Below the pieces are notes generated by a model. The model was not told where the DNA came from and did no database searches. It was given only the letters and a program-made list of their open reading frames with translations. The position numbers were made by a program, and so were the translations under genes. DNA of 64,000 bases from Heptranchias perlo (lineage: Eukaryota). Of the stretch, positions 20,189 through 57,110 are shown piece after piece. Position 1 is the first letter of the stretch; each line of letters begins with the position of its first letter. Where the stretch lies: NCBI RefSeq assembly GCF_035084215.1, contig NC_090335.1, positions 54,312,001-54,376,000 of the forward strand, read 5' to 3'.

Positions 20189-20560
20189 CTTCCACTATGA
20201 GACGTGTTGCATTCCCTTGTATTTCTTTGGTAGGCGGCGGTATAAAGAATGCAATCATACAGTAGTAAAGGTCTGTGTCATTCACTTGGAGATCTCGGAT
20301 GGAAAAGTGCATAACATTAGCAGTGTGCTTCCAAGTAATGCTCACTCGGCTATCACACCCAGGACTCTGCATCAGCGTCTTATTCATATAAAATACTCTA
20401 CATACAGGACTGTCACACATTCTCCTCCGCCAGGAAACGGACACCATTTCTACCTCGGAATGATTGTGCCAGTAGGAACAAGTGATGTTTGCATTCTCTC
20501 CCTTTAATGCTCTGAGGACAGCTGGAGCTTGGAGAACTTGGTAATCACTATGTGCCAAAT
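20189..20560 (-). CDS. Gene A exon 2: Ig V-set domain with J-like G strand (CD28/CD28H/NKp30-like)
   Basis: Acceptor ttcatgggaacag|AT, donor GAAG|GTATGA, 372 nt, phase 1-1. Translation QVLQAP...ANITC...VSW...DLQVNDTDLYYC...IPPPTKEIQGNATRLIVE has the canonical B-Cys, C-Trp and DxxxYxC. Confidence 0.93.
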
Positions 20561-21173
20561 CTGTTCCCATGAAAAATCAAAACAAATTAACATTGTTAAT
20601 GAAAACTGTTCAAATATCTCTCTGCGAATTAGCCTAGTTATTTAAAGACATGGGGCTCGATTTTCCTGGGAAATTGCGGAAGCGTTGGGGGCAGGAGGGG
20701 CTCCGAAAATCGGGGAAATCCCATTCGGGTTCGGAGCCCGGCTACGACCCGCAGATTTCCGGGTTCCCCATTGACGCGTCTGGGTACGCGCGTCTCCTGA
20801 ATGCGGAAGTCCCACCGGCAATTAAAGCTGGCGGGATGATAATTTACACAGTTGTTGAGGTAGTTTAAGTACTTGAAATACTTAATTTTCTCCAGGGGTG
20901 CAATTTTGAAGGATCCTCAGTGTGTTTCCCGTGCTGTGGGAAACACTCCCTGTTGCAACAGATGTGTTTCAGCCAGCAGCCAGTGGGAGATTCGAATGCT
21001 TATTTGACAGATGGGGAGAAAAGGTATTGCAGCAGGGCACTCTGTTCTTTCGGACAAAGTTTTGGCTGCAGGATCTTTGTGTTTTCACTGAATATTCTTA
21101 CTTTCCACTCAAAATTCTGCTGTTCAAACACAGTTACCTACTTTGCGGAGCCCCACAAACTTACACCGTCAGG

Positions 21174-22380
21174 ATGGGGGGGGCGCCATGGCTGCATTCA
21201 CCACTACATCCGAGGACGAGCAACATCACCAGCCTCGTCAGGCAGAGCGTCCACCTCCGCCGCGTGGAGCTCCACAACACAGTGCTGCGCCATAGGCACC
21301 TGCACAAGAACACAGAGGGCAACAACAGAGAGAGCACCATCGCAGGAGGCACTACCCTCGCAACAGGGTCTACAGACCGAGGCTCAGCTTCCTGGACCTC
21401 TCTGAGGAGCAGTGCACACGAAGGCTCAGAGTCAGTCGCCAGGTAGTCGCAGACATCTGCAGCCTCCTTCATGCTGAGCTGCTCCTTGCTGGGCCGAGCA
21501 GCATCTCCTTACCTGTCGCTGTCAAAGTCACCACTACCCTCAAATTCTTCGCCTCCGGATCATTCCAGGGTGCCACCGGGGACATCACCGGGGTCTCTCA
21601 GTCGTCTGCACACAAGTGCATAAGGCAGATCACTGACGGTTTGTTTCGCAGGACCTCGCAGTACGTCAATTTCCCCAGACGGAGAGGGCAGTGGGATTCC
21701 ACTCTGTGGCTGGCTTCCCACATGTTCAGGGTGCAATCGATTGCACCCATACAGCAATATGAGCACCTCCACACGAGCCAGGACTGTTCATCAACAGGAA
21801 GGGCTACCACTCCATCAACACTCAGCTCGTTTGTGACCACCGCAAGAAATTCCTTCAAGTGTGTGCCAGATTCCTGGCTGTTGCCACGATTCCTTCCTCC
21901 TCCGGGAATCCAACATCCCGCCCCTCTTCCACGCACCGAACACCCTTAAGGGCTGGCTCCCCGGGGACAAGGGATACCCCCTGCACACATGGCTCATGAC
22001 ACCTCTGAGGAACCCCATCACTGAGCAACAGCATTGATATAATGACAGCCACATCGCCACCAGGTCTACAATTGAGCATGCTATAGGGCTGCTCAAAATG
22101 CGACTTAGGTGCTTTGATCGTTCTGGGGGAGCGCTTCAATACGCACCAGACAGAGTGGGACGCATTATAGTTGTGTGTTGTGCCCTACAACATGGCACAA
22201 CAGAGAGGGGTGGAGCTTGAGGAGGCCCCATCCACATCTGCCATCCACATTGAGGAGGAGCAGGAGGAGGCGGAGGAGGAGCAGGAGGAGGAGGAGGAGG
22301 AGCAACCCATGAGCAGAGCAGTGGCTCACCTGGCTACTCATGAGACCAGGGAGTCACTGATATGTGAACGGTTGTCCTAA
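21174..22380 (+). pseudogene. HARBI1-like Harbinger DDE transposase, frameshifted
   Basis: Pieces encode GAIDCTH-like, [58 protein letters not shown] and an acidic tail, with frameshifts and stops. Confidence 0.88.
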
Positions 22381-22399
22381 CATCAGACAGTGTGAAGAG

Positions 22400-23244
22400 T
22401 TTTTTTTTATTCGTTCATGGGATGTGGGCGTCGCTGGCGAGGCCAGCATTTATTGCCCATCCCTAATTGTCCTTGAGAAGGTGGTGGTGAGCTGCCTTCT
22501 TGAACCGCTGCAGTCTGTGTGGTGAAGGTTCTCAAAACAGTGCTGTTAGGAAGGGAGTTCAGGATTTTGACCCAGCGACGATGAAGGAACGGCGATATAT
22601 TTCCAAGTCGGGATGGTGTGTGACTTGGAGGGGAACGTGCAGGTGGTGTTGTTCCCGTGTGCCTGCTGCTCTTGTCCTTCTAGGTGGTAGAGGTCGCGGA
22701 TTTGGGAGGTGCTGTCGAAGAAGCCTTGGCAAGTTGCTGCAGTGCATCCTGTGGATGGTACACACTGCAGCCACAATGCGCCGGTGGTGAAGGGAGTGAA
22801 TGTTTAGGGTGGTGGATGGGGTGCCAATCAAGTGGGCTGCTTTGTCCTGGATGGTGTCGAGCTTCTTGAGTGCTGTTGGAGCTGCACTCATCCAGGCAAG
22901 TGGAGAATATTCCATCACACTCCTGACTTGTGCCTTGTAGATGGTGGAAAGGCTTTGGGGAGTCAGGAGGTGAGTCACTCGCCGCAGAATACGCAGCCTC
23001 TGACCTGCTCTTGTAGCCACAGTATTTATATGGCTTGTCCAGTTAAGTTTCTGGTCAATGGTGACCCCCAGGATGTTGATGGTGGGGGGTTTGGCGATGG
23101 TAATGCCGTTGAATGTCAAGGGGAGGTGGTTAGACTCTCTCTTGTTGGAGATGGTCATTGCCTGGCACTTGTCTGGCGCGAATGTTACTTGCCACTTGTG
23201 AGCCTAAGCCTGGATGTTGTCCAGGTCTTGCTGCATGCGGGCTC
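22400..23244 (-). mobile_element. CR1/L2-group LINE 3' fragment with poly-A tail, nested in the Harbinger
   Basis: ORF 22559..23158 (IYKAQVRSVMEYSPLAW); tail cccatgaacgaataaaaaaa on -. Same family at 27.2, 35.4 and 38.6 kb. Confidence 0.9.
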
Positions 23245-23544
23245 ACAGTCCTCACACCACCTGGATAGAGCAGCACCCACAATAGCAACCACCCCACCCC
23301 TCCCTGCACAAAACAGTCCTGCAACTACACATACACCCACTGTAGAGTGACCTAATCGGTGGCATCAAGTGTCGCCGTTCATGGTGAACCTCATGAAAGG
23401 ACCCTATCACAGAAGCCAATCAAGAATGGCCAAGACGTGGCAGTAGTGATGACAATAATAATATTTAATGTGAGTTTAACATAAAGCTAATACAAATAAA
23501 AAACATGACCAACCATCAGACACAGTTGTGCATACCCTTCGTGC

Positions 23545-25434
23545 TTACAAACCTTCACCTTTCTCTTCCGACTACTTCTACGTGGTGTTTCCCCTGTGGA
23601 TGCAGCAGAGGTAGTGGCAGGTTGCTCTTGTTCATGCCCAGACCGATTAGATGCTTTGGGCTGACGCCCTCTGGGTTTTGGTTCCATGGGAGGGCCCCTC
23701 CAAAGACTGCTCCACCTGCACCTGTGCAGAGGCAGACTTGGCCACCTGGAGAGGAGGCAGCATTGCGGGTATTGTTTGAGACGGGGGCAGCAGATGAGAC
23801 GTGGGGGCGCTTTGAGTGGCATCCCCACTTTCATGTCCCCTTGGGTCATCATCCCTCCCCTGGGCCAGGCCTACATCACTCCTACCACTCTGCTGGACAA
23901 CAGTTTGGAGGACATGTGTGAAGCTTTGTAAGACCAGTGCTGGTGTATCTGCCTGCCTGTCTAAGGTGGCAGAATGTTGTTCACTGTGAGTCCAAACGGC
24001 CATTGTCAGGGCCTGAATGTACTCATGTATGAGCCGTGCTTGAAGCTCAATGTAGGCTGGCCTTCTCTCCATCACAGACATTCCTGCACTTACCCGTGAC
24101 AGTATCTCAGACAGTTGCTTACGTTCCTGTGGCACTATCTCAGATATACCCTCCCGTACCTGTGCCACCATTCCACTCATGCAGGAGTTGGACTCCTCCA
24201 TCCTCTGCGCTATTGTGGAGACTGCGCGTGGCACCTGTTCCAGCACCTCGCAAATGTTCTGCCGTCCCTCGATCGTTCTCCTTTTAAAGGATGGACCCCA
24301 GAGTTCAGCATCTGCATCCAGCTGAGCAGAGCCTGGAGAGGAGTGCTCCCACCGACGCGGACTCTCCGCATCTGCCCCTGTCACCAGCGTCTGCTCGTGT
24401 TCACATGTGTGTGGTAACTCACCAGGTGCCAACTAACTGAGGACTAGGACCCACTGAGGTGTGTGTATCTGCGCTGGTAGATGGCTCGCTCAGATCTAAT
24501 GGTGCGCCCTCAGAGGGTGGCAGGTCCTCTGAGGAATCGCCCTGTGCCGTCACAGTTATCGCTGAAGGCCCCGTAAGAGAACAGAAGGCAATATTAAGCA
24601 TGATCACAGATGTGTCATGTTGTGATGAGCATACTGAGGTGCTGAAGATGGCAAGGCATATTAAAATCAATTCATATCGTGTGTGATGAATGTTAAAGTT
24701 ATGTCACCAGACGTTTGTCAGGTGCCAGTCTCTGCGTCCCCGATGGACAGGCACTCGAGGGTACGGCTCAGCTCCAGTGCCTCCTCCTCCGCGTCTGTGA
24801 GGACGATGATTTGTTGCGGTCCCGCTCCAGTCCTCGCCCTCTCCCGTGCATTCTGGGCTCTCTTCTCCTATAAGGGGAGAAAGTACAGACGCGTGAGTGA
24901 GTGATGGTGACGTGGCCAACCGATGAATGCATTGGTTTGGGTGTGACTGACCGTGAAAGAGATGCATCAGAGGCTGAATATGAGAGAGAGCCATGACATT
25001 GTATGAGGATTGGGTTGAGTGGTAGTGGTGGGATGACTAATGGGGAGGTGAGGAAGTGCAGGTAAGTTGAGGATGAGCCTTAAGTGGGTGTGGGGAGTGA
25101 TGTGATAGAGTAGTGTTGGCAGTGCAGAATGAGTTGGGAGGTGGGGGCGGTGATGTGGAAGACGGAAAGTAAGAGAATGAGTAAGTGTACTCACTTTGGC
25201 TGACCTGGTTAGGTCATTGAAGCGCTTCCTGCGCTGGACCCAGGTGTGAGAGACGTTGCTGCTGCTGGTGACCACCTCAACCACCTCGAGCCAGGCCTTC
25301 TTGGTGGCAGAGGCAAGACACTTCCTCCTGTCCGCCGGGTAGAACACGTCCCTCCTCCTCCTCATCCCATCCAGTAGTATCTGGAGTGAGGCATTGCTAA
25401 ATCTTGGAGCAGCCTTGCCCCTGTGCTGCTCCAT
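23545..25434 (-). pseudogene. Harbinger Myb/SANT-like DNA-binding protein gene (spliced, decayed)
   Basis: Exon 1 25434-25195 MEQHRGKAAPRFSNASLQILLDG...KKAWLEV...RRKRFNDLTRSAK|GTGAGT; exon 2 24867-24708; the next acceptor appears mutated (cgg); ORF 23647..24432. Confidence 0.8.
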
Positions 25435-26592
25435 TGTGCTGCGTGGGTGTTTGCTCCAGGAGCAGCCATTGGAGGACTGCCCCTTTAAATAGAGCTCCTC
25501 CAGCTGCCAGCCTGTGATGTGGGTGCGCAGTCCGCCCGCTGCACAGCTTTCGGACGGCAAACCCGAAAGCCACGGTAAGTGGCTCCACTTGACTTGCGAT
25601 CGTGTGCAAAACAGACATTTTTTATTGGGGGCGTTACCTACGTGCCCAATCGCCCCTCCCCCCCCGCTACCATCCCACCTCCACGTTAATATCAGGGTCA
25701 TGATTTTAATATTAACGTGTTTTGTCACAAGAGGTTTACAATATAATTGTTTGGTTTAATGAGAACTTAGTGCATTTCCAATTAAATCATGTACATTGAG
25801 AATGCAGCATTGAGATTGTTGCCAGCAGAAGAACTGATTAGGTTATTTCTCATGTTCCAACATTAACCATTCACAATTCTGCATTTAAATCATGGGTTTG
25901 CTTAGTGGTTATAATATCAGTTAAATAATGACAGCTCTATCCTTTAACAATCCCAGTGTAACGATTCTGCGTGATTTTGCCCTACTTTTAATATCAATGC
26001 GTCTACATGGTGAGTGCACATCTCTTACTGCGCTCGAATAGCCCACTCACAGCTGAAACAAAATGGACAGGGCGCGTTGCATGTACTGGCGAGTTTTAGA
26101 CAAGTTTAATACCCGCAGAAGTGCCTGCTCCAAAAACACTGCTCACCTACCACCATGGAGATATGTTGGCACTACAGCAGACGTTAGAATGAAACTTTTT
26201 GAATTTTAATTGAAGTTTAATTAAAATTAGAAGAAAAAAATCGGAGGTAGCAGAAAATAAGATTGACAAAGTTGATACCATTGGATTTTCAGTCATTTCT
26301 TAACACATTTTTCTGCACACAAATGCCTCATGAAACACAGTTTTCTTTTCAAACGAGTACAAAAATAATTTAGCTTTCTTTGAATATAAGCAAAGCATCA
26401 AAAGAACACAGTCAAACATCCAGTGGTATACTGTACGACATTTAGGCCACCCGAAAGCTTGGCAAAAAATCCAGGCCAGGAACTTCAGTGATAGAAAAAT
26501 TCCAACCAGTAGCAGCGGGTTTTCCTCTTAGAACTTAAAGATGTAATACAGCTTGTTCTCTCAACATTATAAGAATAAATAAGCCTTCTTAC

Positions 26593-26647
26593 CTAGAGTA
26601 ACCACGAGAAGAATCCATTTGGTAAAACAGTTAATGAGTGAAGACAT
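26593..26647 (-). CDS. Gene A exon 1: signal peptide (MSSLINCFTKWILLVVTL-)
   Basis: ATG at 26647; 18 codons +1 nt, hydrophobic C-terminal half, donor G|GTAAGA. Phase 1 matches the V exon acceptor. Confidence 0.75.
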
Positions 26648-26794
26648 TTTGCCCAGCACCAGCTGAATTGACACGATCAGTTCTGGGACAGGGCTGTCAA
26701 TAGTTCTGCTGCAGTTGTTCAGTGGGTGAGGATGTGCAACAGTGCTGCTGCTAAAAAGATGAAATGGACTCTTGTGGGTTGTTTTCACATCGGT

Positions 26795-26820
26795 CTTCCT
26801 GTTTCACATGAGGTTGCGGT
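26795..26820 (-). promoter_or_regulatory. Candidate gene A promoter: ETS (ACAGGAAG), E-box (CATGTG) and RUNX (ACCGCA) cluster
   Basis: Plus strand reads cttcctgt 26795-26802, cacatg 26805-26810, tgcggt 26815-26820, about 150-170 bp upstream of the ATG. Confidence 0.4.
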
Positions 26821-27180
26821 TTTTGAGTAATAATGTTTATTTTTAAATATATATCAAAAATTAATTAATTTATTAAAAAGAAGAACTAGTTCAAAGCATG
26901 TCTGTGACAAGGCATTACATGTCTCTGTTAAGTCTGAACAAACCTCGTGTATTTTTCATTAGCTTTTCTGGGACCTCACTTCTACAACAAAAGAAATTTC
27001 CTGTCAGTGCTTCATAAATATTTAATTGGTCATGTGGATGTTAATTCTTTTATTCACTTTTCACAAATTTATAATGAAATAGTGTTAGGAAATTTCTATT
27101 GGAGAATTTCATGCATACTTTTCATTCTGATGAAAGATTCAGTTACTGGAGAAATACAGTTTGTGTTGATTGCATGTAAC

Positions 27181-27857
27181 TTTTTTTAAAATTCGTTCAT
27201 GGGATGTGGGCGTTGCTGGTGAGGCCAGCATTTATTGCCCATCCCTAATTGCCCTTGAGAAGGTGGTGGTGAGCCGCCTTCTTGAACCGCTGCAGTCCGT
27301 GTGGTGAAGGTTCTCCCACAGTGCTGTTAGGAAGGGAGTTCTAGGATTTTGACCCAGCAACGATGAAGGAACGGCGATATATTTCCAAGTCGGGATGGTG
27401 TGTGACTTGGAGGGGAACATGCAGGTGGTGTTGTTCCCATGTGCCTGCTGCTCTTGTCCTTCTAGGTAGTAGAGGTCACGGGTTTGGGAGGTGCTGTCGA
27501 AGAAGCCTTGGTGAGTTGCTGCAGTGCATCCTGTGGATGGTACACACTGCAGCTACTGTGCGCCGGTGGTGAAGGGAGTGAATGTTTAGGGTGGTGGATG
27601 GGGTGCCAATCAAGCGGGCTGCTTTGTCCTGGATGGTGTCGAGCTTGAGTGTTGTTGGAGTTGCACTCATCCAGGCAAGTGGAGAGTATTCCATCACACT
27701 CCTGACTTGTGCCTTGTAGATGGTGGAAAGGCTTTGGGGAGTCAGGAGGTGAGTCACTCGCCGCAGAATACCCAGCCTCTGACCTGCTCTTGTAACCACA
27801 GTATTTATATGGCTGATCCAGTTAAGTTTCTAGTCAATGGTGACCCCCAGGATGTTG
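27181..27857 (-). mobile_element. Poly-A LINE 3' fragment (same family as 22400-23244)
   Basis: ORF 27476..27799 near-identical to 22559..23158; same 3' tail. Confidence 0.9.
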
Positions 27858-28189
27858 AATCATCATCATGGTAAAATGTTTAATTGTGGTGTTAAAATAC
27901 TCACTTAACGGGATTTAATAAGAGTGAACACAAATGAGTGTAGATGGAGTGGTTCGGAGTTTCAGGTTCTTGTCAATCTAGTCGACTTCCCATATAATAT
28001 TTACATGAAGCGGGGTTAGAGTGTGGGGGATAATTGGATCCAGGTGTACACATAATATTCAGGACCCATTTTAAAGTCATACATTTTGTCCTTGTTTTAT
28101 ATTTCCGTGAGTTGATCGTTCATGGTGGTGTACATGGGGGTCAAGACCAAGTGTAGTATTCGGGTCATTCAGGGTTAGAGGATGGTGGA

Positions 28190-28440
28190 TAATTGGACCC
28201 GGGGGGAGGGGTCAAAGGGAAAAAGGAAAATACAAATGGGAGAAGGAGAGGTATTGGGCGGAGGTGGGGAGAAAATGGAAGAGGACAGAGAAGATGGAAA
28301 GAGGAGAAGGATGGAGGTGGTGGGGGAATGGGCAGAGGAAGGGGTGAAGGATGGAGTGGAAGATGACATATTAAGAGGAGGAGAGCAAGGAGAGGTGAGG
28401 TTGGGGGAAGTGTTAACCAGTGCACTAGAAGAGGAAATTA
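28190..28440 (+). repeat. GA-rich low-complexity tract
   Basis: Strong purine bias on the plus strand; no domain signal. Confidence 0.6.
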
Positions 28441-28987
28441 ACCCTTAAAGATTTGCGTTCTGATCGCCATAATTATGTTCATCTATATACACCAGACCTA
28501 GTGAGACCAATTTTTATCATACTTAGTTTGTTCTGTTTGAATTTCCAGGAAGTTTGGAAAAGGTTGTTGTTAGCACAATTGCCACATTTGAGAATAAATA
28601 TTAAATCAAAACACACAGGTCATCTAGCTTGAGATATATGGAAATTAATAGGAATACTGACTTAAACCTTATATGGGACCCACAAGGCTCCAAAGAGTGT
28701 AATAAGTGGTCCAAAAAGACAAGGAGGGAGAAATTGGATAAAGGTCCGCTCTGGGCGATGGTAGCACGACACCCGGACCGAACGGGCCCTCCGCAGGCAG
28801 CACGTGAAATGCTACTTACCCTGAAATCTCCGCGCTGCAAGCGCAGCCCTCGCTGCTGAGAGGCTGCACGGAGAATGAGGAAGTTGGAAATGGGGCGTGC
28901 ACAGCGCACGTCATCAGCAGCCTGCACTACTTAAAGGTGCAGGCATATTTCTAATGGCAGATACACAGCCAAGGAGGAGAAGGGAGA

Positions 28988-30840
28988 ATGGCATCGCGAG
29001 TAGCTGCACCAGCAAGAGAGCGGGCACCAAGATCCTTGGATGATGCTCTGGAGGCCCTGGTGGAAGGGGTGGACCAGAGGAGGGCAGCACTGTACCCGCA
29101 GGGTGGCCAGAGACCGTCTAGACTACAGCTGCGTAAGCACTGGCAGGCCGTGGCAAAGGAGGTGAATGCGAGGAGTATTGCACCACGCACGTGGGTGTAA
29201 TGCCGCAAGAAATGTAATGACTTGACACGAGTGGTCAAGGTGAGTGAATGCAAATGTCAAGTGGCACATCCTACCAACTGCACCAATACTCCATGCACGA
29301 CACCTCCCGTCACCCACCCACCCACCAACAAACACTGCCCATCCATACGCAATGCTGCATCTCACAGGCACATAATACCACACTTGCAGGCCACACAACC
29401 ACCACTCAAGTCACACAAACCGGCAGCTATTCTACCATGACAGGCACATCACCCACACACCTTGCAGGACACTCACTGACACACTGTCCTCTGTCTTGCA
29501 GGAGGGACCTGAGGCTGGACAGGCACGTCTGCACATCCTCACCCCCCTAGAGGAGACAGTGCTCAGGATCATTGGGCGGGCCGTCACAGCAGCCGTTACA
29601 ACGTGCCGCGCTGGAGGTCCTGGTCAAGGGGGTCTCTGCATATCTAATGCTCCTTCTCCTTTTCCATATTTCCCTTCTCCCATAATCTTTTCTGACTCAT
29701 GTGTTGCACATGATGCCAGCTCGCACCTCTTACTTGCTCCTCTCCCCACTCCACAACTCAACCTGTTGCCCTTTGTCATTGCAAATACCCAAGAACACGT
29801 GGTGGCACCCGAGGAGGAGGAGGAGGAGGAGGAGGAGGACACTGAAGCCACACCATCACTCGATCCGACACTCGCTTCCACCAGCTCAGAGACTGACACT
29901 GCGCGTCCTTTAGAGGTTAGGTTAGAGGAGGGATCTACACGTGGTGAGACACCGAGCACAAGTGCACAGGAGCTGGGGTCGGGGGAACGGATACCACAGG
30001 TGCCAGCTCACCGGAGGGCGAGGTCACTCACTAGTTCTGCAGCAAAGGAGTCAGATGAGGACGTCGATGGGCCAGGCTACAGAAGACGGCTGATGGGCAT
30101 ACACCAACAAATGCTTGGGGCACTGGAAAACCTGCCAGAAAACCTGCGCATAATGAGAAGGGGCATGGAGGAGTCCAGCTCCAACTGGGCGCAAGGCTTT
30201 GCGCAGAGCTTGGAGCCCATCCTTTCCAACATGGAACAGGTGGTCACCCCCATCAACGCACCTGTGGAACCCACCATGATGCAGTGTCTGATGACTGATT
30301 TCACAGCATCAATTGCAGCACAAACATCTGCCATCCAAGGTCTGACTGCTGCATTTGCAGCTCAGACTGCTGCCTGGAAAGCTCAGACTGCTGCTATCGT
30401 GGCTCTGGGGGCCACTGTGGAACGGGGCTTCCAGGGCGTCACAGCACTCCAGCAATCCGTTCTCCAGCTGATCACCAGGATTGCTGAGGCGCCGCCCCGG
30501 GAGAGTGGCAGTGGCACCATGGCAGTCGGACCTGCTGTCCTCTCTCAGGACAACAGCCTTCCTGTCCCCACCCCTGCCACTCCGCCAGTGCCCCTGTTGT
30601 AGCCTGTCGGCCAGCCAGGCCAGACTGCTGCAGCCCATGCTGAGATGGCACAGTCTGAAGCCGGCCTCCAGGCCCAGAGCTGCTCGAGGTCGTCCTCCAA
30701 GGCCATCTGGATGTTCCTCCATTGAAAGCCAGCAGCCTTCCACCACCCACGCTCCAGCCACTGGGGAAGCACCTCGTAGGAGCACTAGGATAGGTAAAGG
30801 CACACGAACAACAGGCACTAAGGGAATGAACAAGGGTGAA
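28988..30840 (+). pseudogene. Harbinger Myb/SANT-like protein, premature stop at 29198-29200
   Basis: RERAPRSLDDALEALVEGV...WQAVAKEVNA...RTWV*CRKKCNDLTRVVK|GTGAGT; downstream acidic/coiled region in ORF 29496..30602. Confidence 0.8.
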
Positions 30841-30871
30841 TAGTTCTGTTATGTTTGCATATTTTCATTTA

Positions 30872-35393: not shown

Positions 35394-36453
35394 TTTTTTT
35401 TTTATTCGTTCATGGGATGTGGGCGTCGCTGGCGAGGCCAGCATTTATTGCCCATCCCTAATTGCCCTCGAGAAGGTGGTGGTGAGCCGCCTTCTTGAAC
35501 CGCTGCAGTCCGTGTGGTGACGGTTCTCCCACAGTGCTGTTAGCAAGGGAGTTCCAGGATTTTGACCCAGCGACTATGAAGGAACGGCGATATATTTCCA
35601 AGTCGGGATGGTGTGTGACTTGGAGGGGAACGTGCAGGTGGTGTTGTTCCCATGCACCTGCTGCTCTTGTCCTTCTAGGTGGTAGAGGTCGCGGGTTTGG
35701 GAGGTGCTGTCGAAGAAGCCTTGGCGAGTTGCTGCAGTGCATCCTGTGGATGGTGCACACTGCAGCCACAGTGCGCCGGTGGTGAAGGGAGTGAATGTTT
35801 AGGGTGGTGGATGGGGTGCCAATCAAGCGGGCTGCTTTATCTTGGATGGTGTCGAGCTTCTTGAGTGTTGTTGGAGCTGCACTCATCCAGGCAAGTGGAG
35901 AGTATTCCATCACACTCCTGACTTGTGCCTTGTAGATGGTGGAAAGGCTTTGGGGAGTCAGGAGGTGAGTCACTCGCCGCAGAATACCCAGCCTCTGACC
36001 TGCTCTCGTAGCCACAGTATTTATATGGCTGGTCCAGTTCAGTTTCTGGTCAATGGTGACCCCCAGGATGTTGATGGTGGGGGATTCGGCGATGGTAATG
36101 CCGTTGAATGTCAAGGGGAGGTGGTTAGACTCTCTCTTGTTGGAGATGGTCATTGCCTGGCACTTATCTGGCGCGAATGTTACTTGCCACTTATGAGCCC
36201 AAGCCTGGATGTTGTCCAGGTCTTGCTGCATGCGGGCTCGGACTGCTTCATTATCTGAGGGGTTGCGAATGGAACTGAACACTGTGCAATCATCAGCGAA
36301 CATCCCCATTTCTGACCTTATGATGGAGGGAAGGTCATTGATGAAGCAGCTGAAGATGGTTGGGCCTAGGACACTGCCCTGAGGAACTCCTGCAGCAATG
36401 CCCTGGGGCTGAGATGATCGGCCTCCAACAACCACTACCATCTTCCTTTGTGC
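35394..36453 (-). mobile_element. Poly-A CR1/L2-group LINE, 5'-truncated, open RT C-terminal ORF (35458..36459)
   Basis: [10 protein letters not shown]...FADD motifs, 333 uninterrupted codons, poly-A tail. Confidence 0.93.
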
Positions 36454-37325
36454 TAACATTTCATCTCTAACATTTCATCTGCATAGTGTATTGCGTCCTA
36501 AATCAAACCTCTTCAAGTCATCATCGAGGGAGTAATGTAATCTGTATACTCAGATGCAAGGGTACTTCCTGCACCTTTGGTGTAGTCTTATCCTATGTTA
36601 CATCGAGTTACATCGTAGCTACAGCACAGAAACAAGCTATTCAGCTTAACTGGTCTAAACCAGCGTTTATGCTCCACAAGAACCTCCTCTCTCCCTGCTT
36701 CATCTAACTCTATCAGGATATCCTTCTATTCCTTTTTCCCTCATGTGCTTATCTAGCTTCCCCTTAAATGCATCTATGTTATTTGCCTCAACTACTCCTT
36801 GTGGTAGCACATCCCACATTCTTACCACTCTTTGGGTAAAGACGTTTCTCCTGAATTCCCTTTTGGATTTATTAGTGACTATTTTATATTTATGACCTCT
36901 AGTTTTGGATTCCCCCACAAGTGAAAACATTTTTGCTATGTCTACCCTACCAAACCTTATTATCTTAAAGACCTCTATCGGGTCAACCCTCACCCCTCTT
37001 GTTTCTAGAGAAAGGAGCACCAGCCTTTTCTGATAAGGGTATCCTCTCAGTTCTGGTATGATCCTTGTGAATATTTTTTGCACCCTCTCCAATGCCTCTA
37101 TATCCTTTCTATAATATGGAGACCAGAACTGTTCACAGTACTCCAAGTGTGGTCTAACCAAGGTTCTATACAAGTTTAACATGACTTCTCTGCTTTTCAA
37201 TTCTATCCCTCTAGAAATGAACTCTAGTGCTTGATTTGCCCTTTTTATGGCCTTATGAACCTGCATCGCCATATCTGTACCCTTAGAACCCTTTGCTTCT
37301 CTATCCCATTTAGTCTCTTATTATC

Positions 37326-47170: not shown

Positions 47171-49054
47171 TCAGTGTAAACTAAGCATGATTTTGTTACA
47201 CTACTACAGCTTACATTACTCCTTTCCTAATCAGTCATTAGTTTTGCAACTTTGTGGTATGTCACAAGTATTGACATTACAGATATCAGTCAATAGTCTT
47301 TCATTCAATTTAATATTAATTTTATTGTTGAAATAAGATTTAATACTGAACTTCACAATAGTCAGAAGTTATCCAGTCAAAGACAAAGATTTTTCATTAA
47401 CCACAATGTTTAGCTTTCATATCAAGTGTAATCATGTGTCTCTAAAAAAAGGAAGTGTTGACAATAGTTACTGAGAGTGCCTCCTGATTCAGCAGCATTA
47501 CATATATTCGTCCTAACTTCACGTAAGTGCTTTATTTTATTGTCCTTTATGGAGGCTTTTTTGGGTATTAAATAGCATGACATGATTCTGGGGTACTAAT
47601 GTACAAATCTGATTCTTACAATGGACACATTTCCAGGTGAATATTCTGTCTGGTAAACAGATTCAGAGGCAGAAGGAGCAGTGACTGAAGCTTCGCCCCT
47701 GATATTCTAAGTATTCCATGGAAATTTTCCTTTCCCTGCATGATTCTGTAAAGATCATGATTAACTTTTTCTTGTTTCACTATTTTTATGTTTGGGTAAT
47801 GGGTAAACATTGTAATTTTGACTGAAATTTTACATTTTATTTACTTTGACACTGCTATTTACAATATCTACAATTTTTTGTTAGTGATCTATTTTTCTCA
47901 TGGACTAAAGTTTATTGCAAGGTACTAAACAGAGGGGTTTTTAAATTCTCTGTTAACTAATTAATGGAAGCTTGAGTCGGGGAAGGGGTGGGCACTAAAC
48001 CTTATTGCCCGCTGAACTTAGTTCCTTATTATCATTTAAAAGAAATAAACTGTAAGTGCTGGAAATCTGAAATTGCTGTAAGTACACAGCAGGTCCATCA
48101 TTTCAGGTTGAGTGAACCATCAGAAATATGACCTAGACAGTTCGACAGTTCTTGGTTTGTGCTTGGGAAATACTGCATGGTTCAGGAGGTAGAGCAGAAT
48201 TTAGGAGTACATGCTGTAGCACATTTTATGTCATAATTTTGAATTGAAACTTCCTATGTTCACATTTATAATATGAAAGCCATACATCTACATTTTACAA
48301 TGAGAAAAGTCTATCTTCCATTTATATTGGAAAACAGTATGTGAACATTTATAATGGGATATGTACATATTTTGTGATCTCAGATTGTTGATAAACGTTC
48401 AAATATGTTCACTCAAAATACTGTTTGAAAAGGTGTTGACAGGCCATTTTTTTCTCAGTAACTGAAATTTCTATGTCCAAAAAGAGGTTTTAAAACAAAA
48501 TTCAAAAATTCAAAAAAATTGCATATTTTACAATTGCATGACTAAATTTAACCATTGAATTTTTTGTGTCTTTTATTGCCTTCCTTAAAGGTTTTATTTG
48601 AAGGCCTCAGCCTTTTCCCAAAAGCCTGGCTATGGACGTGATATTTTTGCTCAGAGCTGTGACTGTGAGCTGAAGGTATTCACTGCAATCTGAGAATGAG
48701 CACTGCGTTTCCCAGGAAACATTAATAGCATTTAGAGAGACAAATGGTAGAATGATTCTCTCAGACTCTAAAAAAAATCTTTTAAGTTGTTTTTTTCTCA
48801 AAATTATTTAAAGAAAAGCTAAAAGACAAATTTCAAAAGCTTTATCTGGGTAAAAATTATATAAAGTGTTTTTAAAAACATACAAAGGCTGTGTGCATAT
48901 ATATAAATTCACCCTTAGAGACACACACACATACACTCCTGAGAACCAATTCAAAAACACCAAATTTAATGTTTGCCGAGATCTCTTAGAACGTTCTAAT
49001 CCAGTGCTGGGATGCCCCCACCCACACACACTACTATAAGGCCCATGTTCCCCC

Positions 49055-49740
49055 CTCACTTTTGAGCTGAGCTTCTGACCCCATGTCCTCTCCATCACCA
49101 AGACCTCCGTAACATCGCCCGTCTTCGCCCCTGCCTCAGCTCATCTGCTGCTGAAACCCTCACCCATGCTTTTGTTACCTCTAAATTCAACTATTCCAAT
49201 GCTCTCCTGACCGGCCTCCCACCTTGCACCCTCTGTAAACTTGAGCTCATCCAAACCGTATCCTAACTCGCACCAAGTCCTGTTCACCCATCATTCCTGT
49301 GCTTGCTGAACGACATTGGCTCCCAGTCCGGCAATGCCTTGATTTTAGAATTCTCATCCTTGTTTCCAAATCCCTCCATGGCCACACCCCTCCCTATCTC
49401 TGTAACCTCCTCCAGCCCTACAACCCTCAGAGATTTCTGTTCTCCTCCAATTCTAGCCTTTTGCACATTCCTGATTTTAATCACTCCATCATTGACGGCC
49501 GTGCCTTCAACTGCCTAAGCCCTAAGTTCTGGAATGCCCCCCCTAAACCTCTCCACCTCCCTACCTCACTCTCCTTCTTTAAGACGCATTTTAAAACCCA
49601 CCTCTTTGACCAAGTTCACCTGTCCTCATACCTGCTTATGTAGTTTGGTGTCAAATTTTGTTTGATAACGCTCCTGTGAAGTGCCTTGGGTCATTTTACT
49701 ACATTAAAGGCGTTATATAAAGGCAAGTTGTTGTTGTTGA
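49055..49740 (+). mobile_element. L2 LINE 3' fragment
   Basis: HAFVTSKFNYSNALL and HWLPVRQCLDFRILILVSKSLHGHTPPYL motifs; (GTT)n tail. Confidence 0.85.
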
Positions 49741-52700
49741 TAGTAGAAATCCACCAGTGAGACAAACTCTGTATTGTACTCTCCTTTGTTCTGCCAAATA
49801 TCAGGTTCCCTCTCCACAGTGATGCCAGACCAAAGTATCCCACCCCTGTTGCCAAACCCAGCAGCCCCACTGCAGTGCTATTAAAATCTAAGAGTCCCAC
49901 ACCAATTCTACCAAAGCTCAGGGCATCCCTCAGTGCAACCAAAGCCCAGGGCTGTGCTCTGTGCAGCTAAATCCCATTATCCCTCTTCAGCACTGCTAAA
50001 TACTAGATATCAAACTATTGCATCATGTACCATCTTGCAATGTATTCTCAGTTTTAAAACAGGTAAGGGATAAAAAATGAGTATATAAGGCAAAGAAATA
50101 TGTATATATATATAGCCACTCATTTACAGAATAATGAACAGCATCATGGAATTCAATCTCCAAAGCAGCAGTATATCATTTAATAAAAATGGAATTTGAC
50201 TTATTCAGCCCACTGTAAATCAATGGCCCTGCATGGCATAAACATCCCTTTGTTATAAAACAGTGTATCTTCCGACTCCCCATGAGCACTGCCAAAGAAA
50301 TCTGCTAGTACTGTATATATAAAAACAGCATTAAAAACAGCATGGATTGTGTCTCTTGGACATGATAAACTGTTTTCCTGTTTGAACCCAGTAAATTATG
50401 AAGCTGTTCTTTTTTACACTTGATACTCAATGCATTTAGAAACTTAGTAAAACAGTGCAGTTCTGTAGTTGAAATGTACTTTATATTAATTGGTAGCCTT
50501 AAAAAAACTACTTTAATAAAAAACTCTCATAAGCTTTCACTATTCAATGAAAGTCTACAGGTCTGGCAAAACTTGGCAGACTTTAATAATTAGATCAGTT
50601 TGCATGATAAGTGAGCATGTTTTCCATCGTTACTCACACATGGTTAAGAAGGACATAATTTCGTGAGGATTTCTAGCACACACAACCTTCAAAACAGTTT
50701 ATTTTATGCTCACAACACCAGCTCTATCTCTCTGCCCCTCCCATTGATTCAAAGGCTATTACTTAACTCTCCAACTACCTGTCTGCTGTCTGACATCAAG
50801 ACCTGGATAAGGTAAAAAATTCCTCCACCAAAACCATAACAACATTGCCCACCTCCTCCTCTACCTCTCCTCAATGATACTCCTTCCCTGGATTCTTTCA
50901 CCTTTCTACCTCTCTTCATGCTTTCAAAGCCTCCTCAAAACCCCTTTCTTCAACTATGCCATCAGCTTCCCATTCTAACCCTTTTCTTTTTCTCTCTCCT
51001 GCTTGAAATATGCTGATTTTTTTCCCCTCCTTAATGTAAACTCATTTGAGTCATCTTCCTGCTCATGAGGAATGCCACAGAAATGCAAGTTGTCGTTGTA
51101 TAAACTTGTTGACTAGTAGAAATCAAAAAGTAATTGCTTTAATTGCTAAACTACTACAGTAAATGAACCTTGCTCCAAAAGTACTTCCCATTTAATTGAT
51201 ATTTTAGTGGATTTACAGACATCCAATTAGAACGAGTATTTACAATGGTCTGTCTCAGGTGTAAAATACATATTTCTCTCTCTTTGGTAAATAAAGCCTG
51301 ATGTCAGGTTACATCACTGCTGACTGTAACCTCTAATAGTGCATGGAGTAAATTAATGAACCTGATAAACTAAATTCTATTTTAAAAATTTGAGTCAGTG
51401 AATGGCAGCATATGGTGAGATTTGTGACACTGTCGTCTGCATTTGTTATTCCATTCTCTGTACCAGTGCTCCAGCCAATTGCATTTGTTTTGTTTTTAAA
51501 TTCGTTTCATTGAGCTGTATTGAAAAAATACACTTATTGACTGAAAATTACAAATGCAGTTCTCCTGATGGCGCAGGGCAATAGTGGCCAAGCGGCAGCC
51601 CATGAGCTACGTGTGGCTCCTGAGCTTCAGAAATCCAGCCCTTGAAGTCAAGGCAGTTCAATCTTATATATGTTTATATCTGTTATTCGCTGGTTTGTGG
51701 TGTTTGAATTTTGTGGCCCTGGAGATTTGGGAATGGCTGTTCTTAGTGCTGTTACATTGTTATTGGATGAATCCTAAATCAGAACACCAAGTATTACTAA
51801 CTTGAGTAATATGAATATGAATGGAGATATTGATCTAAATTTGACATGATCCCTCCCCCCATCTCCCCCCCCCCACCCCCACCCCCACCCATGCTACACA
51901 CCTATGCAGCCAACAGATAAGAAACTTAGACACTCACTCAGGGAGTAAAGGTATCGTCCAGTATACGGCACTAAATAATACAGAGCAGAAGATTGTAGAT
52001 TCAGTCTGCACTCTATGCTGAATTGTTTGATCTCAGTCACCACAGATCACTGCCTGGCGGCCCCTGCATCCTCTGAGTAAGTTGGAGCTGTAAGTTGCCT
52101 TGGTGAATACAACACAGAGAGCCACAGAGAGAGAAGCTGAGCGAGACATTTCATAGAGTTATTTACCAGTGTCAGCAGTACACACACATTAAAATCAGCC
52201 ATCTCAAATTTCCCACTCTCTGGGGAGCCACACTCACTGATGATCTGCTGGTTTTAATGCACACATTCCACCAATGATAATTGACTCCCAGAAGAGTCCC
52301 ACACTCCCAAGCTCTCAGGTTAACATTGGAGGGCCATTCTCCACAAGTCAACACCTAATAGCACAATACAAAATAAATATATCTATAGCTCTGGTTCCTG
52401 CCAATTAGAATAGCGGTCCTGAGAGGGAGGCTATGTAATTGTTTCACTCCAATTGTCTAACACGCACAGCGAACAGAAAGAACAAGGACTAGAAATATAC
52501 GCTGGCTGTGATAAAGAACAAGAAATAATAGATACTCTGTCACATCAATATTCTAACACTGAAATTTTAGTAAAACACAATGAGATTTTATATTAATCAC
52601 AAGGAATGGCACATCATGGTATTTATCAAATAATCCAGTTCTGATTCTAGTGCCAATATCATAGTATCACTTCCAAAGCAATATCGATTTCCATTTTATT

Positions 52701-53069
52701 GATTAAATGGAGTCTATTACATTGTAGCGCTTTCAACTGTCACTCATTTTCAGTGAAAATCACCCATTCTGTTTAAAAATGTCAGCTATTTTGATGTATC
52801 ACCTTCTTAGAAATAAATCCATTTAGATGGACTTGCAAATGTCTCACTCTTAACTGTTACTCCAATATTTCTTCAATTTTGATGGCCCTGATGTTGTCTG
52901 GGTAGAAAAACAACATTGAAACATGCTTCTAAAGATGAAAATTAAGTGCTAAAGTTAGATGGTTGATTTACACTAAATCAGCCAATCTCCACTACAAAAT
53001 GTGTAAGAAAATCCACAAGTCAGTTACTTATCAAAGTTCCTTTTCTATATTTTCAGAACTTGTTAAATA

Positions 53070-53133
53070 ATGTTACTGCTGGGAAATCAAGGAGTCCAGC
53101 TTCCTTTCTTACTGCATATCCTTCTCAGTGCAG
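53070..53133 (+). CDS. Gene B leader exon (MLLLGNQGVQLPFLLHILLSA-)
   Basis: 21 codons +1 nt, donor CAG|GTAAGC, phase 1. An acceptor ttttctatattttcag ending at 53056 implies an upstream 5'UTR exon. Confidence 0.78.
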
Positions 53134-53669
53134 GTAAGCTTACAATGTCGTCTTCTAATTCATATTCGAAAGTTACAAAAATATTCTCCGATTGTTTTAC
53201 AGAATACATTTCCAAATCTTTAAACCTGAAAAGATATTCATTCTCCAACTCCATGGTCTTCATTCTCCCCTGCCTTCTCTGATTGATCCTCACTTCTCCT
53301 CCTCCCTCCTCCCCACCCTCTATTGTTACATTGTAGCTGGTTTTGGTGCAGGGATTTTATCCTGTTAATTGTTGTTTTATAACTGACTACTTAAACTTTT
53401 TCTGTTGAAATGGAGTTTCCACTGTTAAACTGACTTTCTCTTTCAGACGCCGATTAACCCATTGCGTACTTCCATCATTTTCTGTTTTCATTTCAAATTT
53501 CCAGTATGCAGCATTTTCTTTTTAAAATGCAGACTACAGTATTTATGCTTTTATGGTGCTGTTAAGAGAAGTTGATACCAAAGCAGAATCTAGTGGTACT
53601 GCAGCTGTTTAAACATACTAAAAACACAAAATGAGAAAAAGCATATTTGGCCCATGAACCCACTCCACA

Positions 53670-53975
53670 GGTGCAATCTTTCGGATGAGACCTTAAACTG
53701 AAGCCCCCTCTGCCCTCTCGGGTGGATGTAAAAGATCCTATTCGAAGAAGAGCAGGGGAGTTCTCCCCGGTGTCCTTCAACCAACATCATTAAAAACAGA
53801 TTATCTGGTCATTATCTCATTGCTGTTTGTGGGACCTTGCTGTGTGCAATTGGCTGCACCGTCTCCTACATTACAACATTGACTATACTACAAAAGTACT
53901 TCATTGGCTATAAAGCTTTTTGGGATGTCCTGAGGTCGTGAAAGGCAATAAGGTATATAAATGCAAGTTCTTTCT
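53670..53975 (+). mobile_element. DeuSINE/SacSINE1-like SINE (5'-truncated)
   Basis: Central tttcggatgagac..ggtggatgtaaaagatcc..gaagaagagcaggggagttctcc domain and L2-like tail. Confidence 0.75.
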
Positions 53976-54019
53976 TTTGTTCTTTCACTATCTGGTGGCA
54001 ATCATGGAAATTTGTTCTT

Positions 54020-54985
54020 TATATTAATGATTTGGATGAGAATTTAGGAGGCATGGTTAGTAAGTTTGCAGATGACACCAAGATTGGTGGCATTGTGGAC
54101 AGTGAAGAAGGTTATCTAGGATTGCAACGGGATCTTGATAAATTGGGCCAGTGGGCCGATGAATGGCAGATGGAGTTTAATTTAGATAAATGTGAGGTGA
54201 TGCATTTTGGTAGATCAAATCGGGCCAGGACCTACTCCGTTAATGGTAGGGCGTTGGGGAGAGTTATAGAACAAAGAGATCTAGGAGTACAGGTTCATAG
54301 CTCCTTGAAAGTGGAGTCACAGGTGGATAGGGTGGTGAAGAAGGCATTCAGCATGCTTGGTTTCATTGGTCAGAACATTGAATACAGGAGTTGGGATGTC
54401 TTGTTGAAGTTGTACAAGACATTAGTTCGGCCACACTTGGAATACTGTGTACAGTTATGGTCACCCTATTATAGAAAGGATATTATTAAACTAGAAAGAG
54501 TGCAGAAAAGATTTTCTAGGATGCTACCGGGACTTGATGGTTTGACTTATAGGGAGAGGTTGGATAGGCTGAGACTTTTTTCCCTGGAGAGTAGGAGGTT
54601 TAGGGGTGATCTTATAGAAGTCTATAAAATAATGAGGGGCATAGATAAGGTAGATAGTCAAAATCTTTTCCCAAAGGTAGGGGAGTCTATAATGAGGGGG
54701 CATAGATTTAAGGTGAGAGGGGAGAGATACAAAAGGGTCCAGAGGGGCAATTTTTTCACTCAAAGGGTGGTGAGTGTCTGGAACGAGCTGCCAGAGGCAG
54801 TAGTAGAGGCGGGTACTATTTTGTCTTTTAAAAAGCATTTGGACAGTTACATGGGTAAGATGGGTATAGAGGGATATGGGCCAAGTGCAGGCAATTGGGA
54901 CTAGCTTAGTGGTATAAACTGGGCGACATGGATATGTTGGGCCGAAGGGCCTGTTTCCATGTTGTAAACTTCTATGATTCTATGA
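54020..54985 (+). mobile_element. Young 5'-truncated CR1 with open ORF2 C-terminus (54032..54904), in gene B intron
   Basis: SKFADDTKIGG...LYKTLVRPHLEYCVQ...; 290 uninterrupted codons; (TTCTATGA)n tail. Confidence 0.93.
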
Positions 54986-55777
54986 AATGTATAGAGTTAA
55001 TTTGGGAGTGTATAGTGCAATTTTAAAATGGAAATGCGTTATGTTCTGCTTCTGTAAAATTAAAGGGGCTGCTTTTCATTACTAGTGTGTGATTCGGAAC
55101 TGATGCAAATTACACCAGAATGGTTATTTTAGTAGCCCTTAAATTTTGTATAATTATTGACAGCCTCAGGTGCAGATTTGAGTATGTGCAGAGAACATAT
55201 TAGTGCTAGGAGCAGAAAATCAAGTTCCCAATATAATTCATACATTTGGATATAGAGAAAGAAAAATGTGCACTTATACAGTGGCTAACCATGTCTCGCG
55301 GAAATGTCGCAAAGCACTACATATAGAATGAATTACATTGTGCAGTTATTATTTTTATGGTTAAATGTGGCTACTACTTTGCACATAACAAATTCCCACA
55401 AACAGCAGAGATGAATGATTAATTAATTTGTTTTTTTCTGGTGGTGGTGAAGAGAAGAATGCTGACTAGGATGTTTTCATATATGAATGGATGCCACAAA
55501 AAATCAGATTAATATCATAATTGCTGAGAAAATTTTTGGTAAGCTGAGAAAAGATAAAATGCAATAACTAATTTAAAATACTCAGAGCTTTTTCAAATCA
55601 TTGAAAGTTTCATTTTCTAAATAAAAGTATTCCATGAATTCGGTGCTTTGTATTGTGACGTTTTAATGCGGCCAGCGGGACTTCATGGTACACAGTAAAA
55701 TGGCCCACTAAGTTTGTACACCTATACCATAGTGTAAAGTTATACAACAGTCCACAGGTTATACTGGTAGATTCATT

Positions 55778-56478
55778 AGGGGAAATTTTAACACTGCTGT
55801 CCGGCAGAAACAGAGAGGGTGTGCAGTTAAACTTGCCCGTGGGACTTACCCGGCTGAGATCCCACTGTCCTCCCACAGGTTCCGATTTTAACCTCTTCTG
55901 AGCAGGTGAGAGAGGCTTTTACCAGAAACCAGTGGGGACCTTCTTTAAATATGCAGAGCGGGTTCTGATGATGTCAGCGAGGCCCAACTGCTATTTTAAT
56001 CCGAGGCTTGTGCAGGGAAGCCGTTGTGGTTTTCTTGCCAGGCCATCCTAGTGGGAAGAGGAGTAAGGGCCAGAAGAGGCCCAAAAAGGTAAGACTGTTT
56101 AATTTTTTTGACATTACTTGTGGGGCCAGGGGGAGCTGGAGTTCTCCTGCAGGCCCCATAAGGAAAGTTTAGGCCTCCCCAGCCCCAGGCTCCCCCCACT
56201 CCCCCACCCCTTCACCAACCCGCGACCGTAAAGCTCTCCCAAACCTCCATCCAGTCACTTACCTAAGTGCAGGATACCCGTTCCTTTTGTCCCAGGCAGC
56301 GGCCTGCTGCCGCCAGACATTTCGCTCCTGCCCACTGGCCAGCTGCCACTTCCCACTGGTTTCAACGGGAAACTAAATTCTCCTTGGCTTCACGCTGCTG
56401 AGATATGGACAGTTTGCCGCCCATTGTATACTTCCAGCCCCTTCCTGAACAACTGCTGCCCCAAGTTAAAATCAGAGC
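55778..56478. mobile_element. Degenerate Harbinger-type MITE
   Basis: GGGGGAAATTTTAAC start, GTTAAAATC end, shared internal gtggggccagg motif. Confidence 0.5.
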
Positions 56479-56744
56479 TACTTTTTTTTTTACTGACAGT
56501 CAGATCAGATCCTGAACTTCCAAAGCCATTTTCGGCATATCAGGACCTGATTTACAGAATATTAGAGTGTGCTGCTCTCTCTTAAAATCAGCAGTGTGTA
56601 AACACTGAGAGCTTCATTTGATTACCATCAAGATGAACTGAACCTTGTTTTTAAATGGGTTGATCTGTGATGTGTAAGCAGAGTGACGGGGTTAGTAATG
56701 CTGGATATTCTACACAACTAATTATTATGTTTGTTTTGCCCAAG

Positions 56745-57110
56745 GAGAAAGCCGAAACCTGACAGTTTCACAGACACCATCTGTGATCAAAGCACTAAAA
56801 GGACAGACAGTGAAAATAAACTGTTTGTACAACAGTGAAGACGAAGAACAGTTCAGGATTAAATGGGGAAAAAATAACAGTGCACAAAAGCTATGTGATT
56901 ATACTTACAATCAAAGTAAAAGAAAATATACATCATGGCATTGTACAGAACGTGTAAACATTACACTGGACCTCTCAACAAACTCGTCATCTTTAATAAT
57001 CTACAATCTTCATTTAAATGACTCTGACATTTACTTCTGCAAGGTTTCTATTGAAATACCTCCGCCTACACAAACAGCACAAGGTAGTGGCACGCACCTA
57101 ACAGTGGAAG
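56745..57110 (+). CDS. Gene B Ig V-set exon with J-like G strand
   Basis: Acceptor ttgttttgcccaag|GA, donor GAAG|GTGAGC, 366 nt, phase 1-1. LTVSQTP...VKINC...IKW...LHLNDSDIYFCKVSIEIPPPTQTAQGSGTHLTVE. Confidence 0.93.

Follow-up and report, generated by a model that had tools for sequence, protein, structure and literature searches.

The window, 64,000 nucleotides of the Heptranchias perlo genome (NC_090335.1, 54,312,001 to 54,376,000; G000:C11:54.312-54.376 Mb in the 3.25 Gb searched), holds two intact genes, here called A and B, each predicted to encode a membrane receptor with one V and one C1 domain. They lie head-to-head, A on the minus and B on the plus strand, and both are laid out as leader, VJ, C1, transmembrane (TM) and tail exons; the two leaders are ~26 kb apart in opposite orientation. 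Every exon border follows GT/AG and preserves phase, no internal stop occurs, and in each gene the V exon scores above the Pfam V-set cut-off and the next exon above the C1-set cut-off. The exons are the following (pLDDT, predicted local distance difference test).

26593..26647, minus: gene A leader exon, ATG at 26647, phase 1 (similarity to the leader of orthologue P0012; border in phase)
20189..20560, minus: gene A single-exon VJ with extra cysteine pair and FFIPPP loop (Pfam V-set; contig joins it to C1)
16625..16930, minus: gene A C1-set exon, extra cysteines before the B strand (Pfam C1-set E 7e-10; spliced to V and TM)
15394..15483, minus: gene A TM exon, hydrophobic span without charged residue (splice joints seen)
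12517..12672, minus: gene A cytoplasmic exon with two YxN and one SxYxxI (spliced contigs)
53070..53133, plus: gene B leader exon, phase 1 (tblastn with P0006)
56745..57110, plus: gene B single-exon VJ with extra cysteine pair, IEIPPP loop and GxG (Pfam V-set; model pLDDT 89)
59568..59873, plus: gene B C1-set exon (Pfam C1-set E 5e-16)
61191..61300, plus: gene B TM exon, Arg near its outer end (Arg in 5/5 B-type orthologue models having a TM exon)
G000:C11:54381236 (L020:5236-5370), plus, ~5 kb past the window: gene B last exon, tyrosine-free (in phase)

A third paralogue, C, lies ~104 kb left of the window and matches the public model P0006. The first-pass annotation of the window had proposed CD28-type V domains fused to a C1 domain, and the motifs that it quoted stand where it placed them: YYCMIAFFIPPPTK at 20267-20226 (-) and GNATRLIV at 20216-20193 (-) in gene A, YFCKVSIEIPPPTQ at 57032-57073 (+) and GSGTHLTV at 57083-57106 (+) in gene B. 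The fusion itself is borne out by the C1-set exons at 16930-16625 and 59568-59873, both outside the interval 20189..57110 to which that annotation referred. Its J-like G strand holds in part: gene B has a true GxG, but gene A reads GNA, and GxG is kept in only 7 of 26 family members, all of them chondrichthyan.

These genes differ from rearranging immunoglobulin and T-cell receptor (TCR) genes in that the V domain and its J-like strand occupy a single exon. No recombination signal sequence (RSS) was found within 2 kb of the A and B V exons in a scan that did recover a 23-RSS at each of the two control TCR V genes, and rearranging V segments were rejected on this ground; the scan of C gave a single weak match, inside an intron. 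Pseudogenes were likewise rejected, as A and B are intact and A is spliced. In X1, a putative RNA run from one sample, contigs join the V to the C1, the C1 to the TM and the TM to the tail exon of gene A over canonical introns, covering the gene from V through tail with the leader uncovered. Gene A is expressed. A tandem acceptor at its tail yields a one-residue isoform, and the public models P0011 and P0186 differ by the same residue.

Signalling ends and range of the family

The three genes differ at the signalling end: B carries an arginine in its TM segment, C an ITIM (immunoreceptor tyrosine-based inhibitory motif) and A YxN motifs. In the B type, represented by B and 5 of 5 orthologue models (three models lacking the TM exon were left out of this count), the arginine sits near the outer end of the membrane span and the tail is free of tyrosine. 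The C type has a neutral TM segment, and each of its 14 proteins carries a single, terminal YxxL/V/I. The A type has YxN in 8 of 8 cases, and YVNV itself in 4 of the 6 shark models; YVNV is listed as the CD28H motif of skate, epaulette shark and turtle in the accessible part of PMC11599192 (supplement 4). We regard this as very probably a paired-signalling family. The earlier annotation had described the two V domains of the window and had missed both the third gene, with the activating-, inhibitory- and YxN-type ends that the set comprises, and its range beyond sharks.

At the nucleotide level B and C are 67-78% identical in the 5' part of V, 93-100% in its 3' third and 92% in C1, and this step from 67-78% to 93-100% suggests that an activating-type B and an inhibitory-type C are linked by gene conversion. 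None of the three genes encodes a stalk cysteine. From sharks to bowfin, the C1 domains of the A type retain one or two additional cysteines immediately ahead of the B strand (window 16900-16880, minus strand, in gene A), where an interchain disulfide is possible. In gene B the last exon looks like the final part of a Tc5/Tigger-type transposase remnant. B-type models of several sharks have this exon too, and the read-through model P0001 carries HTH_Tnp_Tc5; the exon may have arisen by exonisation of a transposon tail.

Searches with B and A returned 10 and 2 longer proteins, respectively, from sharks and rays only. A profile search of 50%-identity representatives gave full-length single-copy relatives, and in the 18 of 150 listed rows whose source was read they come from chimaera, skate, bamboo sharks, sturgeon, paddlefish, gar, bowfin, conger, loach, carp, lungfish, caecilian and sea turtle; two amphibian proteins in the same rows are other VJ-C1 kinds. 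The last search added further turtles, alligator and tuatara. No bird or mammal member appeared among its 21 matches, which is weak evidence of absence, and the tetrapod members found are C-type only. A shark-specific C1 fusion was rejected, as the V-C1 form is found across jawed vertebrates. In public databases the members are called light chain, SIRP, tapasin, MHC, CEACAM or uncharacterised, and the light chain, SIRP, tapasin and MHC names would be corrected by the present assignment.

In the C1 tree, built without the C1 sequences of a second locus at C11:48 Mb (see below), the family forms one group (93/95) into which two long non-family rows are drawn. The A type unites sharks with paddlefish and bowfin (93/91), B falls within the chondrichthyan C type (98/95), and the split between A and C types predates the divergence of sharks and bony fish (93/91 and 82/80). 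The YxN and ITIM members of bowfin have consecutive locus numbers. As judged from these comparisons of predicted proteins, this is an ancient jawed-vertebrate family of germline, non-rearranging V-C1 membrane receptors.

Two features of the V domain are conserved far beyond chance. In 25 of 26 family V domains PPP occupies one and the same alignment position, and an extra cysteine pair, with one Cys in the C' strand and a second within 26 columns, is likewise present in 25 of 26. Both extra cysteines are missing together from the chimaera protein, a joint loss that fits a disulfide between them, and in the V model (pLDDT 89) they lie at opposite ends of the C'-C'' hairpin. The first-pass annotation had taken the pair to be placed as in CD28 and CTLA4; its first Cys does align with that of shark CD28/CTLA4, but the second comes 4-5 columns earlier, before the D strand, and in the alignment both are missing from shark CD28H, CD28HL1, CD28HL2 and CD28X. 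It had also read the conserved IPPPT as a sign of selection on the loop. The PPP is indeed kept in orthologues, but the T varies, and the identity of B and C around IPPPT also reflects sequence homogenisation (93-100%), so that it is not independent evidence. Loss of PPP in orthologues, or strong placement of the V domains outside the CD28/CD28H/NKp30 group, had been named as outcomes that would overturn the proposal, and neither was found.

It is rather unlikely, in our estimate, that the family has already been named as chicken PRARP or amphibian VJC1, relics of antigen-receptor precursors, and that its likeness to CD28 stems from common VJ ancestry. PRARP (Fu et al. 2019) is reportedly a pair with tails bearing ITIM or ITSM (the immunoreceptor tyrosine-based switch motif), its V-C1 orthologues occurring in bony fish, amphibians and reptiles, and both PRARP and the VJC1 genes of Xenopus (Fu 2019, Ohta 2019) are said to have a canonical J-like GxG. 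This plan, a non-rearranging V-C1-TM receptor with an ITIM/ITSM tyrosine tail and a similar taxonomic range, is that of the C-type members, 5 of 14 of which have an ITSM-like T at -2 in the tail. Several VJ-C1 genes are known in tetrapods, according to the accessible part of PMC10751288. Yet GxG occurs in 0 of 13 bony-vertebrate members here, an arginine-TM form is present that is not known from PRARP or VJC1, no bird protein is among the 21 matches, and other VJ-C1 loci of H. perlo with GxG-like G strands, at C11:48.0-48.1 Mb and C27:44.9 Mb, are better candidates for PRARP or VJC1. A literature search gave no description of this V-C1 family or of six of its accessions outside the texts of Fu 2019, Ohta 2019 and Ohta and Flajnik 2015, which may bear on novelty, and the accessible part of PMC12619710 holds nothing on it. 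The family is apparently unnamed so far. UrIg and UrIg2 of elasmobranchs are similar in joining a non-rearranging VJ to C1; in the portion of PMC12227049 available, they have 3 and 9 C1 domains and are linked to the major histocompatibility complex (MHC) or to IgH/TCR, whereas the present family has one C1, a PPP loop, signalling tails and bony-vertebrate members.

Kinship of the V domains

H. perlo has its own CD28H (L004), CD28HL1, CD28HL2 and CD28X genes, found by motifs of the third complementarity-determining region (CDR3) that match a table in the accessible part of PMC11599192. Matches for CD28H, CD28HL1, CD28HL2, CD28X and CD28/CTLA4 (two genes) lie on contigs C32, C1, C1, C6 and C7, and no C1 exon was found within 20 kb downstream of CD28H, CD28HL1 or CD28HL2. 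Because these loci are separate, A, B and C are additional genes; misassembled copies of CD28H were rejected, the true CD28H genes being located elsewhere in the genome.

When the family V profile was compared with 25 non-family V domains, CD28H came first with 74.0 bits, against 70.5 for CD28HL1, 46-49 for CD28/CTLA4 and 30.5 for an NKp30-like gene, and CD28H was still first (49.7 bits) after removal of the FG loop and G strand. The EIPPP of B and C is the loop of reptile and chondrichthyan CD28H. Together with the single-exon VJ-type V and the YxN/YVNV tail of the A type, these are the points of likeness to CD28H/TMIGD2 and CD28HL1/2 as they appear in the accessible part of PMC11599192; the present family adds a C1 domain, the extra cysteine pair, three signalling versions and a locus between BBX and CIP2A. 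With CD28, CTLA-4 and ICOS the family shares the PPP loop, the C'-strand cysteine, CTLA-4 chains at ranks 1-6 in a Foldseek search with the V model and matches to the ICOS V-set_2 Pfam entry in 9 of 21 members. Unlike them, it has a C1 domain and a shifted second extra cysteine, it lacks the tyrosine of xPPPY, and A, B and C contain neither YxxxxT nor YxxM; the CD28/CTLA4 genes of the shark, on C7, score low. On balance, CD28H is probably the nearest kin of the V-C1 family.

Several results weigh against a firm placement in the CD28 family. The margin left after masking is small, since an unrelated VJ gene on C28 scores 45.1 bits and CD28HL1 44.1, with CD28/CTLA4 at 25-29. The Foldseek E-values of CTLA-4 are within ~3-fold of those of antibodies, all top 50 rows of the VIA re-alignment are TCR and antibody V domains, and a wide VIA search places CD28 at rank 20 (Z 14.7 versus 15.9 for the top). 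The V trees leave the deep placement open, and approximately unbiased (AU) tests reject none of six groupings: p is 0.26-0.31 for the family with the CD28H set, with CD28/CTLA4 or with all, 0.12 for the family with NKp30-like and 0.14 for the family with other VJ-C1 sequences. The references in these trees are H. perlo genes, without mammalian sequences, one CD28/CTLA4 row is missing from one tree, and the labels NKp30-like, IgL, IgH and TCR V are motif-based guesses. Other searches were broad in their matches. A fold search with the whole ectodomain model was dominated by antibody chains; sequence searches of the PDB gave generic V matches, with CD28 10th-12th for B and PD-1 and CTLA-4 in mid-list for A; and in a PDB profile search multi-domain pIgR came out on top and CD28 reached 42 bits, on a par with CD4 and a single-chain antibody fragment (scFv). 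TMIGD2, HHLA2, NKp30 and SIRP chains were absent from the 60 rows listed in the PDB searches, which excludes nothing.

Set beside the CD28 definition of Quiniou 2024, the genes agree in the CDR3/FG motif (PPP or EIP, often then GxG) and, through the YxN/YVNV of the A type and the ITIM-like motif of the C type, in a family-type tail tyrosine motif, of which B has none. They depart from it in that a C1 exon is spliced between V and TM, where a single extracellular V is specified, and in mapping to none of the nine synteny blocks already described; their neighbours are CIP2A, a V-C-V B7 gene and BBX. The CD28 family survey in PMC11599192 used a single-V filter, and the paper states that where the CD28 family came from was not brought to light; its supplements lack four accessions of the present family as well as bbx and hhla2. 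By motif and profile, then, the genes resemble CD28-family receptors, two defining features (the single V and synteny) fail, and common descent is only suggested. Of the earlier proposal of a CD28-family branch with a C1 domain, kinship to CD28H by loop, A-type tail and profile is retained, but membership by tree is not, as the AU tests reject no placement.

The C1 domain and the VIA results also bear on a quite different arrangement, which we consider improbable, in which A pairs with B or C through C1 to form a TCR-shaped germline heterodimer with one combining site. The head-to-head order of A and B, the side-by-side position of A and C types in shark and bowfin, a C1 closest to antigen-receptor-like C1 exons of H. 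perlo, a V model nearest TCR V domains by VIA and the additional Cys that all 5 A-type proteins of the C1 tree have ahead of the C1 B strand would all suit such a pair. The absence of a stalk cysteine from A, B and C does not, nor does the restriction of tetrapod members to the C type; N-glycosylation is predicted to be heavy, with 10 sequons in the V and C1 of B, and each of the three tails reads as a complete signalling unit.

The neighbouring B7 gene and a possible function

An immunoglobulin-domain scan of 460 kb found only the three V-C1 genes, with one C1 exon each, and one V-C-V gene. The latter lies 30 kb beyond C (C11:54160064-54153420) and consists of V, C2-set_3 and V exons followed by a TM-like exon; its first V best matches B7-H3 and B7-H4, and its middle exon is a C domain of butyrophilin/CD80 type. 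CIP2A lies beyond it, and BBX, identified by DUF2028 (E 5e-9) with a weak match to the BBX high-mobility-group (HMG) box, is on the far side of B. In the accessible parts of two papers, human HHLA2 is described as IgV-IgC-IgV, bound by TMIGD2/CD28H through IgV1 (PMC10173190), and as sharing one chromatin domain with BBX, IFT57, MYH15 and KIAA1524 (PMC8254995). Because of its V-C-V architecture and its synteny with BBX and CIP2A/KIAA1524, the neighbour is likely HHLA2/B7H7; IFT57 is on another contig in H. perlo. The link to the B7 family that the first-pass annotation had drawn from the loop is strengthened by this adjoining gene.

We slightly favour the view that A, B and C are a CD28H-related on/off co-signalling set for a B7-family ligand, most likely the adjacent likely B7H7/HHLA2. 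That the ligand belongs to the B7 family at all we place only just above an even chance; that it is the product of the adjoining gene itself is a tentative proposal, somewhat short of even. The adjacent B7H7-like protein is the best candidate because the nearest V relative, CD28H, binds HHLA2 in human. In CD28 and CTLA-4 the PPP loop engages the V domain of B7, and NKp30 is a VJ receptor with a TM arginine and a B7 ligand. By analogy, the PPP-bearing FG loop, held rigid, would dock on a B7 ligand at the front sheet of its V domain in the manner of CD28 and CTLA4, and C1 would serve as a spacer and possibly as a dimer surface. C might act as a brake, its ITIM recruiting SHP-type phosphatases; B would activate by pairing its TM arginine with an adaptor of the FcR-gamma/CD3-zeta kind that carries an immunoreceptor tyrosine-based activation motif (ITAM), as in NKp30, which like B is a VJ receptor with TM arginine (for B7H6) and unlike it lacks C1 and PPP; and A might co-stimulate, its YxN recruiting Grb2/GADS as proposed for CD28H, with a mixed signal possible. 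The cells bearing these receptors would most likely be lymphocytes or natural killer (NK)-like cells. Opposing receptors on one HHLA2 ligand have a parallel in human KIR3DL3 and TMIGD2, in the accessible part of PMC10173190; KIR3DL3, unlike the V-C1 family, is an unrelated D0-D1-D2 receptor.

A number of observations count against this view. The separately encoded CD28H (L004) may already be the receptor for B7H7. The assignment of the neighbour as HHLA2 comes from architecture and synteny, the Atlas HHLA2 cluster being only at rank 17 (0.91), and the linkage of receptor and B7 gene, which is not binding, is seen in one genome only. A strict ITIM, with V/I/L/S at -2, is found in only 2 of 14 C-type motifs, C itself included, and shark A-type tails also bear an ITIM-like SxYxxI. 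No contig joining gene B exons was found in three runs from the same sample; X3 has two exon-bounded contigs on gene B, with 7 and 5 mismatches, that probably derive from paralogue C.

The B7 neighbour might also be incidental, with the three genes acting as SIRP-like or NKp30-like innate paired receptors for a ligand other than B7H7, for example a pathogen or a CD47-like protein, which we hold to be highly improbable. Many public models are auto-named SIRP-alpha-like, the cluster fills the interval that holds CD47 in human, the TM arginine is the solution of NKp30, and homogenisation of B and C is typical of paired receptors driven by pathogens. However, the SIRP ectodomain is V-C1-C1, and here each gene has a single C1 exon, which in gene A is joined straight to the TM exon; SIRP-beta has a Lys where B has Arg, the NKp30-like gene (a label guessed from motifs) scores only 30 bits, and low copy number with PPP fixed over the whole range fits a conserved self ligand. 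A search for the CD47 family gave no match anywhere and was uninformative, as its controls were equally silent.

In its widest form, the co-signalling view would make these genes a tenth, gnathostome-wide branch of the CD28 lineage, with an antigen-receptor-type C1 and its own ligand beside it: the first inhibitory, activating and co-stimulatory receptors for B7H7/HHLA2, since lost in mammals, where KIR3DL3 functionally took their place. We think this unlikely. A CD28H-like V on an immunoglobulin-type C1, from chimaeras to reptiles, would be the intermediate type that ties co-stimulators to antigen receptors. HHLA2 is a checkpoint target in human, and an ancestral on/off receptor pair would date the switch. 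With a candidate ligand encoded next door, three receptors whose signalling ends are opposed offer a cheap direct test.

Other VJ and B7-like loci

Two further VJ-C1 loci of H. perlo flank B7-like genes. At G000:C11:48033000-48145000 (L122, L123, L127, L128, L073), a V-C B7 gene, for which B7-H4 is the best single-domain match in the PDB, is flanked by three VJ+C1 genes that are nearly identical and belong to another family. Their V domains group with a caecilian multi-ITIM receptor, P0148 (97/87), and they are candidates for a B7-H4 receptor or PRARP, as far as such likeness can tell. At G000:C27:44852000-44896000 (L131, L134), a VJ+C1 gene with a PPP loop lies ~40 kb from a B7-like V exon, and it groups with the axolotl tandem VJ-C1 protein P0067 on both V and C1 trees. 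This pattern supports, and does not prove, a linkage of receptors with their ligands; if true, CD28-type receptors and B7 ligands would have begun as linked cassettes built like one antigen-receptor chain.

Single-exon VJ genes occur in two more places. Three of them, with PLP-type loops, are interleaved with B7-like V exons at G000:C38:24.27-24.80 Mb (L005, L010, L016, L077), and one, which has both GxG and an SPP loop, is found amid light-chain-like C1 exons at G000:C28:9.1-10.2 Mb (L009, L087). Left of CIP2A are two exon-like frames with no Pfam match, L049:3584-3853 (+) and L048:2524-2664 (-), which we take to resemble the end of an SH2 domain. Within the window, the introns and intergenic space hold ordinary fragments of repeats of long interspersed element (LINE) and DNA-transposon type, with contigs stacked to high depth, at 21296-25755, 35461-37317 and 53942-54901.

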